The notes beneath the pieces are model-generated. The model ran no database searches, had not been told where the DNA came from, and was given only the letters and a program-made list of their open reading frames with translations. 64,000 nt of DNA from Escherichia phage sutha, in sequence record PV245934.1; one strand, written 5' to 3'. Of the stretch, positions 10,438 to 48,996 are shown piece after piece (position 1 is the first letter of the stretch; the number at the start of each line of letters is the position of its first letter). The position numbers and the translations under genes were made by a program.

Positions 10438-10479
10438 AGTTATCTCTCACTTGTTAAAAAGATTTTATACTCCACAGGA

Positions 10480-10512
10480 CCATTATACTCTGGTCCCAAG
10501 AGTTTGTAAACT
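10480..10512 (-). promoter_or_regulatory. early promoter (GTTTAC-17-TATAAT) upstream of motB
   Basis: minus-strand reading gtttacaaactcttgggaccagagtataat. Confidence 0.6.
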
Positions 10513-10513
10513 A

Positions 10514-11053
10514 TTAATTCAAAATAGCTACCACTGCACTACGAGGTACTACACTAAAATCACCTGCATGAACAACGTTCAGAAGTTCAACACCATCTTC
10601 AATCCACTGGTCTGTTACCCAACCACAGACCGAAATAAATGGGGTCTTGATAGCTACAGCACGAGTTAGAAGGTCAGTAGGATCGCATTCTTGGAAGAGG
10701 ATAAGCTCTGCTTCAAAGACTATAGTTTTAATTACTTCATCATTATCTAAGCGTTGTGCTCGAATCACATAAGCTTTATTCTTATCATGCCAATTACTTT
10801 TTGAAAAACTTTTAACCACAAACTCGCCTTCACCCAAAACACTGGTCAATGCTTTATAACCCAAACTTAGTTCAGTAGTTTTAATTTCAGTTTCAACCAG
10901 TTTGTAGGTTTTGCCGATTTCAATAGCGGTAGTCATAGTAGGTTCCTTAATTTCCAGTGGTTTAACAGGGCATACATAAGTGCTTACAACATCAAAATCA
11001 ATCAGTTTAGCTACCGGATTTGGAGTGTATTCAGGATTATAATTAAATTTCAT
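10514..11053 (-). CDS. MotB paralog (motB.1 position)
   Basis: 179-aa ORF; shares motif C(G/A)(W/Y)(V/I)TDQW(I/V)EDGV(E/K)L with ORF 9940..10437. Confidence 0.45.
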   Translation of the reverse strand: MKFNYNPEYTPNPVAKLIDFDVVSTYVCPVKPLEIKEPTMTTAIEIGKTYKLVETEIKTTELSLGYKALTSVLGEGEFVVKSFSKSNWHDKNKAYVIRAQRLDNDEVIKTIVFEAELILFQECDPTDLLTRAVAIKTPFISVCGWVTDQWIEDGVELLNVVHAGDFSVVPRSAVVAILN

Positions 11054-11055
11054 AA

Positions 11056-11556
11056 TTATCTCATTTCAATAAAATCTATAAGTTCAGCATGGGATTTACG
11101 GAACATTACTTGATGTCCGCCAATGATAACTTGGTCATCTGGCACTTCGTATACAGCAAGATAAAATCCTTTAGAAGATAATTCTTCACGCTCTTCTCGT
11201 GTGAACCATCTCATCATATCATATTCACTAGCGAAAGCAAAATGATAAAGAGCTATAAACCATCCTGGAATATGATATTCTACTCCAACATAATCTTTCT
11301 TGAACTTAGTATTAATTACTATATTAGCGTTTTTAACTAATAGTTTATCTTCATGTGGTACAGGAATTCTTTTATTATCATCGCTATGATGCATAAAATT
11401 AGGTCTACTATAACCTACACGTAATAGCCACTCTTCGCTCCATGAATCTATTATACTCCTGTACGGCGTTATTTGAACACAAAGATTTCGACGTATTGTT
11501 ATAGCATCTTCATAATCAAGAATACTAAACGATGATTCAACACGATAAATTTTCAT
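11056..11556 (-). CDS. hypothetical protein (motB.2 position)
   Basis: ORF 11056..11595 trimmed to ATG 11554-11556 (SD GAGGA) because the upstream ATG lies inside the promoter. Confidence 0.4.
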   Translation of the reverse strand: MKIYRVESSFSILDYEDAITIRRNLCVQITPYRSIIDSWSEEWLLRVGYSRPNFMHHSDDNKRIPVPHEDKLLVKNANIVINTKFKKDYVGVEYHIPGWFIALYHFAFASEYDMMRWFTREEREELSSKGFYLAVYEVPDDQVIIGGHQVMFRKSHAELIDFIEMR

Positions 11557-15296: not shown

Positions 15297-15899
15297 TTAT
15301 AGATTAAATCCTTCAAAATCAAGAGTATAGATAGTGTATGTTGAATACTTTTTATACTCATATCTATCCGCAATTCTAAATACACTTCCAGCTGGTATCA
15401 TTACTTCTTGTTCATCTGAAACTAATTCCATATTACGATAACGATGGCTATCCGGAAATTTAAAACTCGGACTATATTCTTTACAACGTAGAGCTTTTAT
15501 AGCATACTCCTGAAAATTAAATACCATAGGAGCTTTGAATTCAAAAATAACTTGCGTGTTGTATTCTAATCCAGAAGCAAAATGCAGAGCTATATTTTTA
15601 TCATATGAAGCTGATACTACTTTATCAAATGTAATAATATCAATTCCTTGATTTAACACCTGCTTAGTCTCAACTGGAACACCTCTCCAAAGAGGTTTAT
15701 CGTTTGGAACCAAACGAGATTTGATTATTTCATTTAACCAAGAATGATCGTCTGGCTTATTAGTAATACAATGAATTAAAAGTTCAATTTCGGATAAATT
15801 AAATCCTTCAGAAAGTAATTCTTCACGAATAGAAGCACGCACCGATGCATCCATTGATTTGATTTTAAAATCTTTTAATTGCATTGCTGAATATTTCAT
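15297..15899 (-). CDS. modA: ADP-ribosyltransferase ModA
   Basis: 200-aa ORF, same size and position as T4 ModA; paralogous to next ORF. Confidence 0.7.
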   Translation of the reverse strand: MKYSAMQLKDFKIKSMDASVRASIREELLSEGFNLSEIELLIHCITNKPDDHSWLNEIIKSRLVPNDKPLWRGVPVETKQVLNQGIDIITFDKVVSASYDKNIALHFASGLEYNTQVIFEFKAPMVFNFQEYAIKALRCKEYSPSFKFPDSHRYRNMELVSDEQEVMIPAGSVFRIADRYEYKKYSTYTIYTLDFEGFNL

Positions 15900-24280: not shown

Positions 24281-24625
24281 TTAAAAGAATTTAAATTTTT
24301 TCTTTGACCTTTTATTAAATGCATCTTGTAGTTGCATTGTAATACATTTTTCTACATGAGGAGCTAACTCAGCTTTTCTTTCTTGGTCAAGAACAGCAAA
24401 GTCCATTACGACTTTTCCATCAACCCAATCTAATTTTGTCACATACACAATGTGTGTAGAACCGTCTTCTAGTTTAATGACAATCTCCTGGATAACATTT
24501 TCCATAGCAGATTTAATTATCTTAAGAGATTCATTAAAAAGACGTTCTTTTCTTTCTTCTTCCCCCTCCGAAGAGGGGGATTCATCGATAATTTCTAGAT
24601 CTAAATCTAAATCATCTTTATTCAT
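24281..24625 (-). CDS. 40: gp40-like protein
   Basis: ORF 24281..24643 starts at GTG in track; ATG at 24623-24625 (MNKDDLDLDLEIID...) more plausible. Confidence 0.5.
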   Translation of the reverse strand: MNKDDLDLDLEIIDESPSSEGEEERKERLFNESLKIIKSAMENVIQEIVIKLEDGSTHIVYVTKLDWVDGKVVMDFAVLDQERKAELAPHVEKCITMQLQDAFNKRSKKKFKFF

Positions 24626-24687
24626 TAAATTCTTCCATATCACTTAACTGATCTAGGTCAGTTTCTAAATCAGCTGCTGATTTACTT

Positions 24688-25800
24688 TTACTTTCTGGAG
24701 ATTTTAAATTTTTCAACCTTTGAGTTAATCAATTCATCAACTTCAGCTTCAACAATTTCATTACTATCAATAGCACCTAACTGATAAGCACGTTTAATAG
24801 CATCTCGGAATGGTTGATGCTTAAATAAAGGACCCCAGAATGTAGTGCAATTGGTATCTTTTGCACGCCAAGATTTTTCTTCGCGAATCATCTCACCGGT
24901 TTCTTCATCAAGAAATTCACGAGCATACCAACCATTTTTAGGTTTTACTACAAATCCTAATTCAAGAGCCATATCTAACAATCCAGAATAAGGATCGATA
25001 CCACCGTCAAATTTAACATCAATAAAGAATTTACTTTTTTCTTTGACGGTACGAGATTTTTCTACATTTAGAACAAATTGATACCCCTGAAGATCAGAAC
25101 CATCTTTAATCTGGCGCTTACCGATAATGAATACAGTATCAGCCGAATACATTACGCCTGTACCACCTGTCATCACGGTTTTACTAAACATTTCAATTGT
25201 TTCAATTGTATGGTTAACCGCAACACATGGAATGTTTTTAATACTAAAATAAGGAGTAACAATACGGAATAATGACTTCAGTGATTTAGCACGAGTCATA
25301 TCTGCCACAGATTTTTCATTCAAGGCATCTTCCGTTTCTTTCTTAGAAGCCATATTACCAATTGAGTCGATGAATACAATAACCTTTTCACCACGCTCAA
25401 TAGCTTCAAGCTGATTCACCATATCAATTTTCAGCTGTTCAACTGACTGAATTGGCGTATGAATTACTCGTTCCGGGTCAACCCCCATGGATCGCAAATA
25501 AGCTGGAGTAATACCAAATTCGCTATCATAGAATAGACAAACTGCATCAGGATATTTGTTCAAATATGCCGCAACCATAGTCAAAGACATATTTGATTTA
25601 AAGTGTTTAGAAGGCCCTGCGAAAATAGTTAAACCAGACTGCATACCGCCATTAATCGCACCAGAAATAGCAATATTAAGCATTGGAATTTTTGTACGAA
25701 TTACATCCTTTTCATTAAAGAATTTAGATGTAGTCAGTTCAGCAGTCATTTTAGAAGTGGAAGCTTTAATCAAACGGGATTTTAAATCTGCAATAGACAT
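24688..25800 (-). CDS. uvsX: UvsX recombinase (RecA family), C-terminally truncated by apparent frameshift
   Basis: 370-aa ORF with RecA-like core; ends ...KFKISRK*; +1 frame continues 27 codons to stop at 24618-24620. Confidence 0.9.
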   Translation of the reverse strand: MSIADLKSRLIKASTSKMTAELTTSKFFNEKDVIRTKIPMLNIAISGAINGGMQSGLTIFAGPSKHFKSNMSLTMVAAYLNKYPDAVCLFYDSEFGITPAYLRSMGVDPERVIHTPIQSVEQLKIDMVNQLEAIERGEKVIVFIDSIGNMASKKETEDALNEKSVADMTRAKSLKSLFRIVTPYFSIKNIPCVAVNHTIETIEMFSKTVMTGGTGVMYSADTVFIIGKRQIKDGSDLQGYQFVLNVEKSRTVKEKSKFFIDVKFDGGIDPYSGLLDMALELGFVVKPKNGWYAREFLDEETGEMIREEKSWRAKDTNCTTFWGPLFKHQPFRDAIKRAYQLGAIDSNEIVEAEVDELINSKVEKFKISRK

Positions 25801-25878
25801 TCATTTTTTTCCATAGGCATCATTATATTTTCCTCACTGGTTAAAGATAGAGTAATTATAACACAATAAATTTAGGCA

Positions 25879-34544: not shown

Positions 34545-34745
34545 TTAGTCATAATAATCAGTAACAGTCCAAGCTTCATTTCTATTGGACATTATTTTTG
34601 TATATTCTGCTTTAAATGCATTCCTAAGCATAGATTCAGTAACTATATGCTCTTCATTAGAAAAATTATTTCTCAGAATATATCGTTTTATTTCAGGAAT
34701 AGTTAATAGATGTTGTCCAGTTGAATATTCCATTTTTTCCTCCAT
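34545..34745 (-). CDS. hypothetical protein (66 aa)
   Basis: ORF in array. Confidence 0.4.
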   Translation of the reverse strand: MEEKMEYSTGQHLLTIPEIKRYILRNNFSNEEHIVTESMLRNAFKAEYTKIMSNRNEAWTVTDYYD

Positions 34746-36917: not shown

Positions 36918-37933
36918 TGTGTTGCCTCTACATATAACTGATTTGCATATTGAATAAGTGCTTCACGGTCAGAATCAGTGATGTCTGGAATTGCATTAAT
37001 GTATTCTTCCATCAACGTCTGAAGAGATTGAACTTCAACTTCTTCGCTATCATCTGACTCGACAGAGTTATCAATCTTTGACACAACTCGTAATGAATGC
37101 ACAACTTTTTCTAGTTCAGATTCGAACTTCGTTAGATTTTTGTCTACCTCAGTTACTATAACACGTACTGATAGATTTGTAAAATCTTTATAGTCAATTT
37201 TTCCCTTAAATGGATATTGAATTCGACGATGCCAGGTAGTGTTGTTTGGAATAAATTCCATTCGTTCTGTTTCTGTATCAAACATCCAGAACCCACGAGG
37301 GTCATTCTCGTCACCTGCAGTTAGTGTCCATGGTGTCCCAATATATCTGACGTTAGCAGCCTCAGAGATAGTATGGAAGTGACCAGACCACACCTCTTTA
37401 TAAGTCTTAAGGAAATCAGGTTCAAGACCGTGAGATTTCATTCCTTTATAAAAATAAAATCCATTCAGCTCCCAGTGACCGACACAAAAAGAAGCAGATG
37501 AAGTTTTGATGTGTTCAAGAATTTCACCAGTATTTTCTTCGCACATCCAAGGAATTAAATCAATCAAACATCCGTCAAAATCTACTGTAGTAGGCTTATC
37601 ATATACTTTAACATTAGGATATTTAGCCAAAAGCTCAGTAGAAGCATTTGGATGCATTACATTTTTATAGTGGAGATCGTGATTTCCTACAATAGTATGT
37701 AATGTGATTCCAGCGTCATCAAGCATTTGAACTATTTCACGGGCAAACTCCATAGTTTTATGCGTGATCGCTTTTCGTACATCAAAAATATCACCGTATT
37801 GAATCCATACAGTAATTCCATTTTTCTTAGAATATTCTATCGCTTGCTTAATTCCGTCAAGTTGAATACCGCGAATCCATTCATCATCAGCTTTAACGCC
37901 TAAATGCCAATCACCCAAGTTTAGTATTTTCAT
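36914..37933 (-). CDS. 47: recombination nuclease subunit gp47 (Mre11/SbcD-like phosphoesterase)
   Basis: 339-aa ORF, metallophosphatase motifs GDWH, GNHD; size equals T4 gp47. Confidence 0.9.
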   Translation of the reverse strand: MKILNLGDWHLGVKADDEWIRGIQLDGIKQAIEYSKKNGITVWIQYGDIFDVRKAITHKTMEFAREIVQMLDDAGITLHTIVGNHDLHYKNVMHPNASTELLAKYPNVKVYDKPTTVDFDGCLIDLIPWMCEENTGEILEHIKTSSASFCVGHWELNGFYFYKGMKSHGLEPDFLKTYKEVWSGHFHTISEAANVRYIGTPWTLTAGDENDPRGFWMFDTETERMEFIPNNTTWHRRIQYPFKGKIDYKDFTNLSVRVIVTEVDKNLTKFESELEKVVHSLRVVSKIDNSVESDDSEEVEVQSLQTLMEEYINAIPDITDSDREALIQYANQLYVEATQ

Positions 37934-38534
37934 GGTGTCTTTTCCATCCTAATTTAGCTGCTTTTGAAACTAGTTCTTTAATTTTTCCTTTTGTCCATTC
38001 AGGACCAGGAGGTTCATGACATAACATTTGCTTAACTCCGTTATTATACCATTTTTTACCTTTATTATGCGATGAAGCTTTAAATTTATTTGACCTTCCT
38101 TTTACATAGCCTTCTGGAATATACGGTAAAAAGGCAGATTTTCCTGTTAATGGGTCATGTGAATGTATGTTTCCTTTACAATTATGAGAACCATATAATG
38201 GATGATTTTGTCCTTTAATATCTCTTCCAAATGAACCTTTTGGAGCAGCATATGACATATTAAAGAATAATGGATTTTTAACCGCATCATGCAAACGTTG
38301 ATAATATAACTCACATTTAATAGCTTCTTCGCGCGTATCAAATTCATCTAAAATGCATGAATCAAATAAATGTGGGTTATCTGAAAGTTCTTCATTATAA
38401 ATTTTCTTATACTTTTTAGATAAAACTGATCCATGATATCCGGCTAAATGCCTATCTAAAGATGTAGATCCAATATAAAAAGGAGGAAGTTTATCTCCAC
38501 TATATATTGTTAAATAAGTTATATATTTTTTCAT
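37911..38534 (-). CDS. GIY-YIG family (Seg-like) homing endonuclease
   Basis: 207-aa ORF with N-terminal YITYLTIYSGDKLPPFYIGSTS (GIY...YIG) motif; 3' end overlaps gene 47 start by 23 nt. Confidence 0.55.
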   Translation of the reverse strand: MKKYITYLTIYSGDKLPPFYIGSTSLDRHLAGYHGSVLSKKYKKIYNEELSDNPHLFDSCILDEFDTREEAIKCELYYQRLHDAVKNPLFFNMSYAAPKGSFGRDIKGQNHPLYGSHNCKGNIHSHDPLTGKSAFLPYIPEGYVKGRSNKFKASSHNKGKKWYNNGVKQMLCHEPPGPEWTKGKIKELVSKAAKLGWKRHHENTKLG

Positions 38535-42549: not shown

Positions 42550-42765
42550 TTAAATTTTCCAGTTACCGTTTTCATCAATAAATTTAATCCAGTCATTTAC
42601 TGACCACTTGGTCGTATCGCCTTTTGGAGCAACATTTAAAGTGTATAATCCTTGTTTAAAAAGCATGCGTTTGATATTCATATTTTCCTCAGCTATAACG
42701 ATAACACTCGTTTGATTTGCGCTTAGCAACTCGTTGAGAAGTATTGTAATCAAAATCATCGTCAA
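42550..42765 (-). CDS. hypothetical protein (71 aa)
   Basis: ORF in array. Confidence 0.4.
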   Translation of the reverse strand: MTMILITILLNELLSANQTSVIVIAEENMNIKRMLFKQGLYTLNVAPKGDTTKWSVNDWIKFIDENGNWKI

Positions 42766-43028
42766 TGTAAACTGATTTTTTTCAACTTTCTTACTTCACT
42801 ACGTAATTGACGATTTAGCTCATCTTTAACTTCTGAATCAATGCCTTTCATTCTACGCCATTTATCAGAGCGAAAAATGTTTTCAACCATATCTTTATGA
42901 CTTACACCATCAGGAGCTTTACGCTTTCCGAAATAGTCATAATCACGTACTTTTAAATCTTTACGACGATACGTTTTACCCATGGAGTTTAATTTCCTTA
43001 GCAACTGAACTAAATACAGCACGATCAC
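42762..43028 (-). CDS. hypothetical protein (88 aa)
   Basis: ORF in array. Confidence 0.4.
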   Translation of the reverse strand: MIVLYLVQLLRKLNSMGKTYRRKDLKVRDYDYFGKRKAPDGVSHKDMVENIFRSDKWRRMKGIDSEVKDELNRQLRSEVRKLKKISLH

Positions 43029-43219: not shown

Positions 43220-43298
43220 ACTTTGTGAAATTATTTTAGGGAATGATAAGAAGGGAACGATAGCTTAGAATGGTAATATACAGAATGTGAGAAAGAAA

Positions 43299-44255: not shown

Positions 44256-44747
44256 TTAATCATGTTTCCACACCCCATCGGTATTTGACCAAAGTCGCTG
44301 ATTATCTGATCCTCGCCACAGCTTTTTGGTCGGAAGATTTTTCTCATACTTCCCATCAATAATAACATCAACATATTTAAGCATTTCTAGTTGTTTAATA
44401 TCTTCAAACTTATATCCTGTCCACAACCAAATGCTTTTATTGGGATAAAGATTTTTTACTGTTTGAACAATGCAATGAATAACATCTCGGTTATCAGGAT
44501 AGAGAGGGTCTCCTCCAGTTATAGTTAATCCTTCTATATAATCATTATTCAAACATTCAATTAATTGTTCTAGTGTTTCACCAGTGAATGGAACGCCATT
44601 TCTAGCATTCCATGTTGATTTATTATAACACCCTTCACATTTATGCAAACAACCTGTAACGAAAAGAACGACCCTGCATCCAGGACCATTAACAAAGCAG
44701 CAAGGGTATATTCTGTCATAATTCATAATAATATCCAATTTTTCCAA
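44256..44747 (-). CDS. nrdG: anaerobic ribonucleotide reductase activating protein NrdG (radical SAM)
   Basis: 163-aa ORF with Cys cluster CxxxCxxC-like GCLHKCEGC. Confidence 0.8.
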   Translation of the reverse strand: MEKLDIIMNYDRIYPCCFVNGPGCRVVLFVTGCLHKCEGCYNKSTWNARNGVPFTGETLEQLIECLNNDYIEGLTITGGDPLYPDNRDVIHCIVQTVKNLYPNKSIWLWTGYKFEDIKQLEMLKYVDVIIDGKYEKNLPTKKLWRGSDNQRLWSNTDGVWKHD

Positions 44748-45557
44748 GCTTCATCAGTAGAATTACAGCGTTTTAGTATAAGATGTCTAGAAACTTTTAT
44801 GGCATTTGAGCACTTTTTAATTGAATCATATTTAATACCGTCAACTGAAACGGTTTTGCTAGTTGGAGAAATTTTTCCATACATTGGATTTTTTGAACCA
44901 ACTTGAAGTCCTTTTAAAGCTTTTGAAAGCTTTTGTCTAGATTCCAATGACATGGGAGAATTCTTTTTACCTTCAATAATTCGCTTGCGATGAAGTTCGC
45001 GTTCTTCTTCACTCAAAGAATTGTAATATTTTTTAACACCGTTTGATATAGATAATTTATCTTTCTCAGACCGCTCTCCAGCTAATTTACTTCTAACATC
45101 TTTTCGCTTCATAGCTATGCTTACGGCTTTATTTAAATTTGCTTGATGCTCTGGCGTACGTTTATATTTCTTTAAAGCACGTGAAATAGCTATTTTAGTT
45201 TCTTCTGTTCTCTTTTTACCTTTATTTGCTAAACTATTTTTGCGGCGATGTTCAAGTGTCTGTTCATAGGCAGTTCCACCTTTTCCACCAGGTTTAATAT
45301 TATATGTATTTTCTTTTAGACAATACTCTTCGGTTACAAGTTCAGCTTCTTTATCATACATTTGTTTTTCATTATCAAAAACATGTAAAATTTCTTTATT
45401 AAAATTTTTTCTACCATGTTTTAATAAAGCGGCACGAATCAATGTTCCTGACCCCATATAACCGTCATTTATTTATGTTATCGGTGCTATGCGCACCGAT
45501 ATATTCCTTTGAATTAATTATATTTGTTATTTTATAAATTATATAATACCTATGCAT
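44723..45557 (-). pseudogene. GIY-YIG homing endonuclease gene split by frameshift (29-codon catalytic N-terminus + 244-aa body)
   Basis: ATG 45555-45557 opens MHRYYIIYKITNIINSKEYIGAHSTDNINK* (GIY-YIG motif), stop at 45468-45470; body ORF 44723..45457 in +1 frame carries NUMOD-like repeats; A-rich site ataaataaatgacgg. Confidence 0.5.
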
Positions 45558-48786: not shown

Positions 48787-48996
48787 TTAATTTCGCAATT
48801 TATTAAGTTCTTCATAATCAATCCAGGATTCTAGTCCTGATGGCAAATCAGATTCAATTTCCCAAAGAAGTTCTTCAATTTTCTGAAGACGATCTAATTC
48901 TTCAGCAGGAATAGTAACCATTGACGGAGTTCTTGATACACTAATATCGTAAATCATATTTATCCCAGTTTGACCATACAATCGCCGTATTTCCAT
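48787..48996 (-). CDS. hypothetical protein (69 aa)
   Basis: ORF in array. Confidence 0.35.
   Translation of the reverse strand: MEIRRLYGQTGINMIYDISVSRTPSMVTIPAEELDRLQKIEELLWEIESDLPSGLESWIDYEELNKLRN

Follow-up and report, generated by a model that had tools for sequence, protein, structure and literature searches.

The window, a 64,000-nucleotide stretch of Escherichia phage sutha (PV245934.1), covers the early/replication region of a Tequatrovirus, T4-like with T2/T6-type glucosylation genes, and the genes lie on the minus strand. Their order is gene 42, the beta-glucosyl-HMC-alpha-glucosyltransferase gene, uvsX, gene 40, and gene 41, and the same uvsX-40-41 order is annotated in REP4, ESh30, D5505, PYps32T, and BW-1. 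An Rfam scan of the entire 64-kb window matched no RNA family. As deposited, the uvsX open reading frame occupies 24688..25800 (minus strand) and encodes 370 residues in the ORF list, the last four of which (ISRK) are out of frame. The product matches the UvsX-like recombinase family of PHROG (phrog_97), and its RecA-like core (Pfam PF00154, residues 40-268, E = 1.7e-11) and T4_UVSX_C domain (PF21134, residues 271-335, E = 5e-39) are both intact. Gene 40 (24281..24625, minus strand) encodes the 114-aa head vertex assembly chaperone (Pfam Phage_head_chap). Its product is 100% identical to REP4 gp40, and by that match the start codon is the ATG at 24625-24623.

The deposited uvsX protein ends in ...NSKVEKFKISRK followed by a TAA at 24690-24688, and the ORF and its translation bear out the C-terminus ...VEKFKISRK that a sequence-only reading of this DNA had described. 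The frame shifts after residue 366, at a run of four A on the coding strand (TTTT on the plus strand; 24702..24705, minus strand) that has three A in relatives, and the acidic tail is left untranslated. In the +1 frame the gene reads K-SPESKSKSAADLETDLDQLSDMEEFNE and terminates at 24620-24618, so that the coding sequence for 27 residues of acidic tail (SPESKSKSAADLETDLDQLSDMEEFNE), with its stop codon, lies stranded at 24618..24701 on the minus strand; this frame of 27 codons had also been noted beforehand. With one A taken from the run, 366 and 27 residues join into a UvsX of 393 aa, the length predicted, and this repaired protein has an exact match in a collection of 15 billion proteins. A search of the same kind found no exact entry for the 370-aa form. 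The out-of-frame codons are more than a chance open stretch, since all 84 nt of the stranded tail match, base for base, a tail allele existing in relatives and the repaired protein is already on record. The identification of the gene, of the shift site, and of the lost tail was correct throughout.

The premature TAA of the shifted frame (24688..24690, minus strand) precedes the start codon of gene 40 by 62 nt. The stop codon of the tail frame, which is the normal uvsX stop, overlaps the gene 40 ATG by 8 nt (ATGAATAA), and an 8-nt overlap of the two genes is also annotated in REP4, ESh30, D5505, PYps32T, and BW-1. Gene 40 had been said to begin exactly at the tail-frame stop; the two overlap rather than abut. 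The Tequatrovirus form of the gene, with an in-frame acidic tail and a stop codon over the gene 40 ATG, is not what the deposited uvsX displays. T4 UvsX has 391 aa (PMC3016280), as the sequence-only reading stated, and T6/RB-type UvsX has 393 aa. These T-even proteins and the window copy have the core, the T4_UVSX_C domain, and the gene position in common, and residues 31-360 of the repaired protein match the structure 3io5 in the PDB (E = 2e-203). The window copy differs from them in the shift of frame after residue 366 and the untranslated acidic tail.

A 301-nt query over the site matched 502 phage-genome records. In the best 60 of these 502 matches 300 bases cover the 301-nt query, and 14 of those best 60 differ from the window by that single gap alone. 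A 49-mer with the A4 run at its centre, designed so as to give A3 alleles no 28-base seed, matched none of 50,697 phage records. Exact-pattern scans yielded no A4 and four A3 occurrences in viral contigs, and no A4 and seven A3 occurrences in metagenome contigs; genome contigs, scanned for the A4 pattern alone, yielded none. All related loci fetched (20/20) carried A3, and alignment with REP4 placed a 1-base insertion in the window at 24702-24705. The uvsX gene is annotated at 1182 nt (393 aa) in REP4, ESh30, D5505, PYps32T, and BW-1. The finding named beforehand as speaking against a lost tail was a 370-aa UvsX shared by relatives in which the downstream frame is not conserved; every close relative examined has a full-length UvsX of 391-393 aa, and in them the downstream tail frame is conserved under purifying selection. 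Compared with every relative examined, the window has an inserted A, and this insertion is seen in this record alone. Around uvsX no sampled genome exceeds approximately 97% DNA identity to the window, even where proteins are identical. The six contigs that share identical neighbouring proteins or an identical repaired UvsX (L011, L012, L020, L021, L022, and L031) are only about 96-98% identical to the window at the DNA level, and no second, independent copy of this genome came to light.

One reading of the A4 run is that of a recoding site, at which a +1 slip of tRNA-Lys on AAA_A, or slippage during transcription, would yield two UvsX isoforms. A +1 slip on AAA-A would regenerate the exact wild-type sequence, and T-even phages use recoding elsewhere, for example in gene 60 bypassing. 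Against this, A4 was present in none of the relatives examined, so there is no conserved shift arrangement, and AAA is followed by ATC, a sense codon in common use that is neither a stop nor rare. Programmed +1 frameshifting of the prfB type is marked by a conserved shift site, a slow A-site codon, and a stimulator. None of the three was seen at the run, and the sequence upstream of A4 contained no Shine-Dalgarno-like element at prfB-type spacing. RNA folding around the run is unremarkable (z = -1.7), with a single local hairpin approximately 28 nt downstream of A4 within ordinary tail coding sequence, and neither the fold nor promoter and terminator scans revealed recoding signals. Transcriptional slippage is associated with A/T runs of roughly eight or more, and a run of four A is far below the length that supports it. 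The slippage site that had been offered as one of three options is hence not supported, given the absence of A4 from the relatives examined, the 4-base run, and the lack of a stimulatory element, and we regard recoding at this site as very unlikely.

Comparison of uvsX alleles showed that two of the contigs, L020 and L021, encode a protein identical to the repaired UvsX. Their 31 and 26 substitutions relative to the window uvsX, respectively, are all silent, because the encoded proteins are identical. In the tail, polymorphism among relatives falls at codon positions 1, 2, and 3 in the numbers 0, 1, and 5. The exclusively silent differences, the intact tail allele, and this distribution over codon positions together point to purifying selection on the tail until essentially now. 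By this pattern of substitutions, the whole uvsX gene, tail included, has evidently been under selection until very recently.

Among UvsX homologues of 380-413 aa, a net-acidic tail of 16-40 residues is present in all that were listed, and many carry a loosely conserved SAAD(I/L)E(N/T)DL motif in it. A separate and sizeable clade of 355-364 aa in other T4-like genera (P0071, P0077, P0080, and P0090-P0134) keeps both Pfam domains and stops near T4 residue 358 without an acidic tail; UvsX of Cronobacter phage S13, for example, has 356 aa and the C-terminus ...EVKDLLG. To judge from these homologues, the acidic tail is conserved within the genus and not universal in the family. Given this conservation in the genus, the frameshift either arose extremely recently or is not real.

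The existence of such short forms raises the possibility that the window uvsX belongs to a natural tail-less lineage. Proteins of that lineage are just 60-72% identical, reach a normal stop at approximately T4 residue 358, which is about 8 residues earlier, end in ...ELI/LLG, and have no stranded tail coding sequence after them, whereas the window retains its tail DNA in full and identical to a Tequatrovirus allele. Membership in this lineage is refuted by the 84 nt of intact tail sequence together with the known 393-aa Tequatrovirus allele obtained upon repair, and we assign it next to no probability. Even taken jointly, recoding and a natural tail-less lineage amount to a very small chance.

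To search for further frame breaks, 88 REP4 and 31 BMB16 proteins were compared with the window by tblastn, and the ORFs of the fetched loci were compared as well. Exactly three frame-broken genes were found in about 120 genes. The first is uvsX, where the change from A3 to A4 at 24702-24705 was followed in phage records, contig scans, and fetched loci. The second is a conserved gene of 97 aa (DUF5499 / phrog_1774; 42692-42983, minus strand), in which a run at 42776-42782 has gone from A6 to A7. Both halves of this gene are 100% identical to the REP4 protein. A 47-mer with A7 had no match in any phage record, the 30 best of 578 matching records were one base shorter at this site, and the viral-contig scans gave no A7 against seven A6. 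The third is a segH homing endonuclease gene between nrdD and nrdG (44723-45555, minus strand), with a GIY-YIG N-terminus and with NUMOD3 and I-TevI-like DNA-binding motifs, which is split by a 4-bp tandem duplication of ATAA at 45473-45476 relative to RB3 segH. This duplication was absent from all phage records searched. Its sequence suggests real slippage in the phage and not a fault of sequencing, and the genome probably contains at least one true private frameshift. An apparent fourth frame break near 48960 was rejected, as it belongs to a relative and not to the window: in the viral contig concerned (L027), two gaps near 10454-11256 fuse neighbouring ORFs.

To look for a general excess of homopolymer errors, the window was aligned with five relatives over about 49 kb. 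In these six genomes, private 1-bp indels numbered five in the window versus 0-2 per relative. Just one of those in the relatives fell inside an annotated gene, in ESh30, whose record is flagged UNVERIFIED; it is a T6-to-T7 insertion at ESh30 (L006) position 15358. Two of the window's private-looking indels, at 43227 and 34733, turned out to be common to 12 and 1 other records, respectively, and are natural polymorphisms. Another of the five sits in a divergent stretch. The indel at 34733 is a G deletion just upstream of a 62-aa gene beside rpbA (GP45.2 in wV7), and the one record among 443 matching phage records that shares it, UoN_LDJ77_1, is otherwise approximately 96.7% identical to the window. 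Seven of ten large window proteins are exactly on record, which indicates that the substitution accuracy of the record is good. DNA polymerase (gp43) is among these seven. A private mutator polymerase was considered and rejected, because gp43 is the standard allele; fresh frameshifts are therefore not explained in that way.

We propose that the phage would carry an ordinary T6/RB-type Tequatrovirus uvsX allele to which a single surplus A at 24702-24705 has been added through an error in base calling or assembly, with over-calling of the homopolymer as its most plausible form. It would then make a normal UvsX of 393 aa with a RecA-like ATPase core, a T4_UVSX_C helical domain, and a disordered acidic tail, from a gene whose normal stop codon would overlap the gene 40 start (ATGAATAA). 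We infer a sequencing origin of the extra A with a confidence slightly above even. A4 is found in no other record and A3 in all fetched loci, a one-base deletion restores a protein already exactly on record, and uvsX is otherwise undecayed, with silent differences alone from its nearest alleles. The DUF5499 gene supplies a second unique +1 gain in an A run (42776-42782) of a conserved gene, and the relatives are almost without private coding frameshifts, the sole one being in the UNVERIFIED ESh30. A real A3-to-A4 slip, moreover, would be a rare event: it would have had to strike a gene under strong constraint, and from T4 frameshift rates three-base runs would be expected to slip seldom.

Several observations argue the other way. 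With just three frame breaks in about 120 genes the window is not riddled with errors, and two apparently private 1-bp indels proved to be shared natural polymorphisms. The 4-bp tandem duplication in segH is untypical of sequencing errors, and consensus errors in runs of 3-4 bases are uncommon on short-read platforms. The extra A resembles other homopolymer frameshifts in phage records, whether over-calls or Streisinger-type slippage as in T4, in the one-base gain of an A run with the downstream frame preserved. It differs from them in that the 3-to-4 run is short and an unusual site for either process. A truncated UvsX would also be viable, an expectation that follows from the dispensability of uvsX in the laboratory, where T4 uvsX deletion mutants are viable (PMC8262927), and from the natural lack of the tail in some other genera.

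Several of these observations lend weight to a genuine and very recent +1 slippage mutation in the isolate, yielding a 370-aa UvsX with its folded domains intact. We consider this a substantial possibility, somewhat short of an even chance. It is favoured by the segH duplication, which looks like real slippage in the same window, by the otherwise clean assembly (7/10 large proteins exact, three frame breaks), and by the viability of uvsX deletion mutants. The clade of 355-364 aa naturally ends near T4 residue 358, and the crystallised T4 UvsX construct, residues 30-358, is likewise without the tail (PMC3016280; 3io5). Recombination genes are, in addition, known targets of defence-escape mutations: T6 escapes from Shedu via stop codons in UvsW (PMC13434031), and UvsX-like genes are defence-escape targets in Staphylococcus phages (bioRxiv 10.64898/2026.06.25.731849). 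On the other side, the tail is found in all listed homologues of 380-413 aa and in all full-length Tequatrovirus-type UvsX examined, and it is under clear purifying selection. In vitro, UvsX truncated by 49 or 54 C-terminal residues no longer forms condensates and is less active in strand exchange (PMC11951158). The variant occurs in no other record searched, and the DNA polymerase is a standard allele without private mutator changes. On balance an artefact is the likeliest origin of the uvsX lesion, which would at most be a new mutation of a single isolate.

If the frameshift were real, UvsX would lose its last 27 residues, of which 9 are acidic and 2 basic, and gain ISRK in their place. The calculated mass would fall from 44.1 to 41.6 kDa and the pI rise from 5.46 to 8.19. 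The C-terminal acidic tail of E. coli RecA is autoregulatory, and its deletion alters DNA binding. The UvsX C-terminus is similar in being acidic and in that its acidic residues modulate DNA binding, and from residue 338 it has been described as intrinsically disordered (PMC11951158). The published UvsX truncations of 49 and 54 residues exceed the 27 lost here, and no literature was found on the removal of these 27 alone. Translation of uvsX would end 62 nt short of the gene 40 ATG and not on it, and any translational coupling between uvsX and gene 40 would therefore be lost. A phage with a genuine mutation of this kind would be expected to remain viable, to show altered recombinase behaviour, and possibly to translate less gp40.

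It would be a further step for the frameshift to be not only real but also selected, the phage being a natural isolate with a tail-less, basic UvsX (pI about 8) that keeps its catalytic domains; we find this improbable. By analogy with RecA tail deletion, the benefit might lie in changed recombinase regulation. Alternatively, it might lie in evading a host defence by which recombination proteins or intermediates are sensed.

Should the extra A be an error, the consequence is one of annotation only, and uvsX should be annotated with 393 aa or marked as carrying a frameshift. Should it be real, the phage would serve as a natural experiment on the conserved tail of UvsX, which is acidic and disordered and has been linked in vitro to DNA-binding dynamics and condensate formation (PMC11951158), and the case would bear also on translational coupling of uvsX and gene 40. 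Either outcome leaves the known working of UvsX unchanged. The case is biologically ordinary and concerns a known gene with a one-base lesion seen in this record alone.

Two further features of the window were recorded. An A run at 25804-25810, which separates the uvsX start codon from the ribosome-binding region, is A7 in the window and in ESh30, and A6 in REP4, D5505, PYps32T, BW-1, and four contigs (L020, L021, L022, and L031). The two lengths represent a natural polymorphism that these genomes share. Between gene 47 and the alpha-glucosyltransferase gene lies a 207-aa ORF (37911-38534, minus strand) with a weak GIY-YIG match. REP4 lacks this ORF, ESh30 has extra genes at the corresponding position, and the ORF is probably another mobile homing endonuclease gene.
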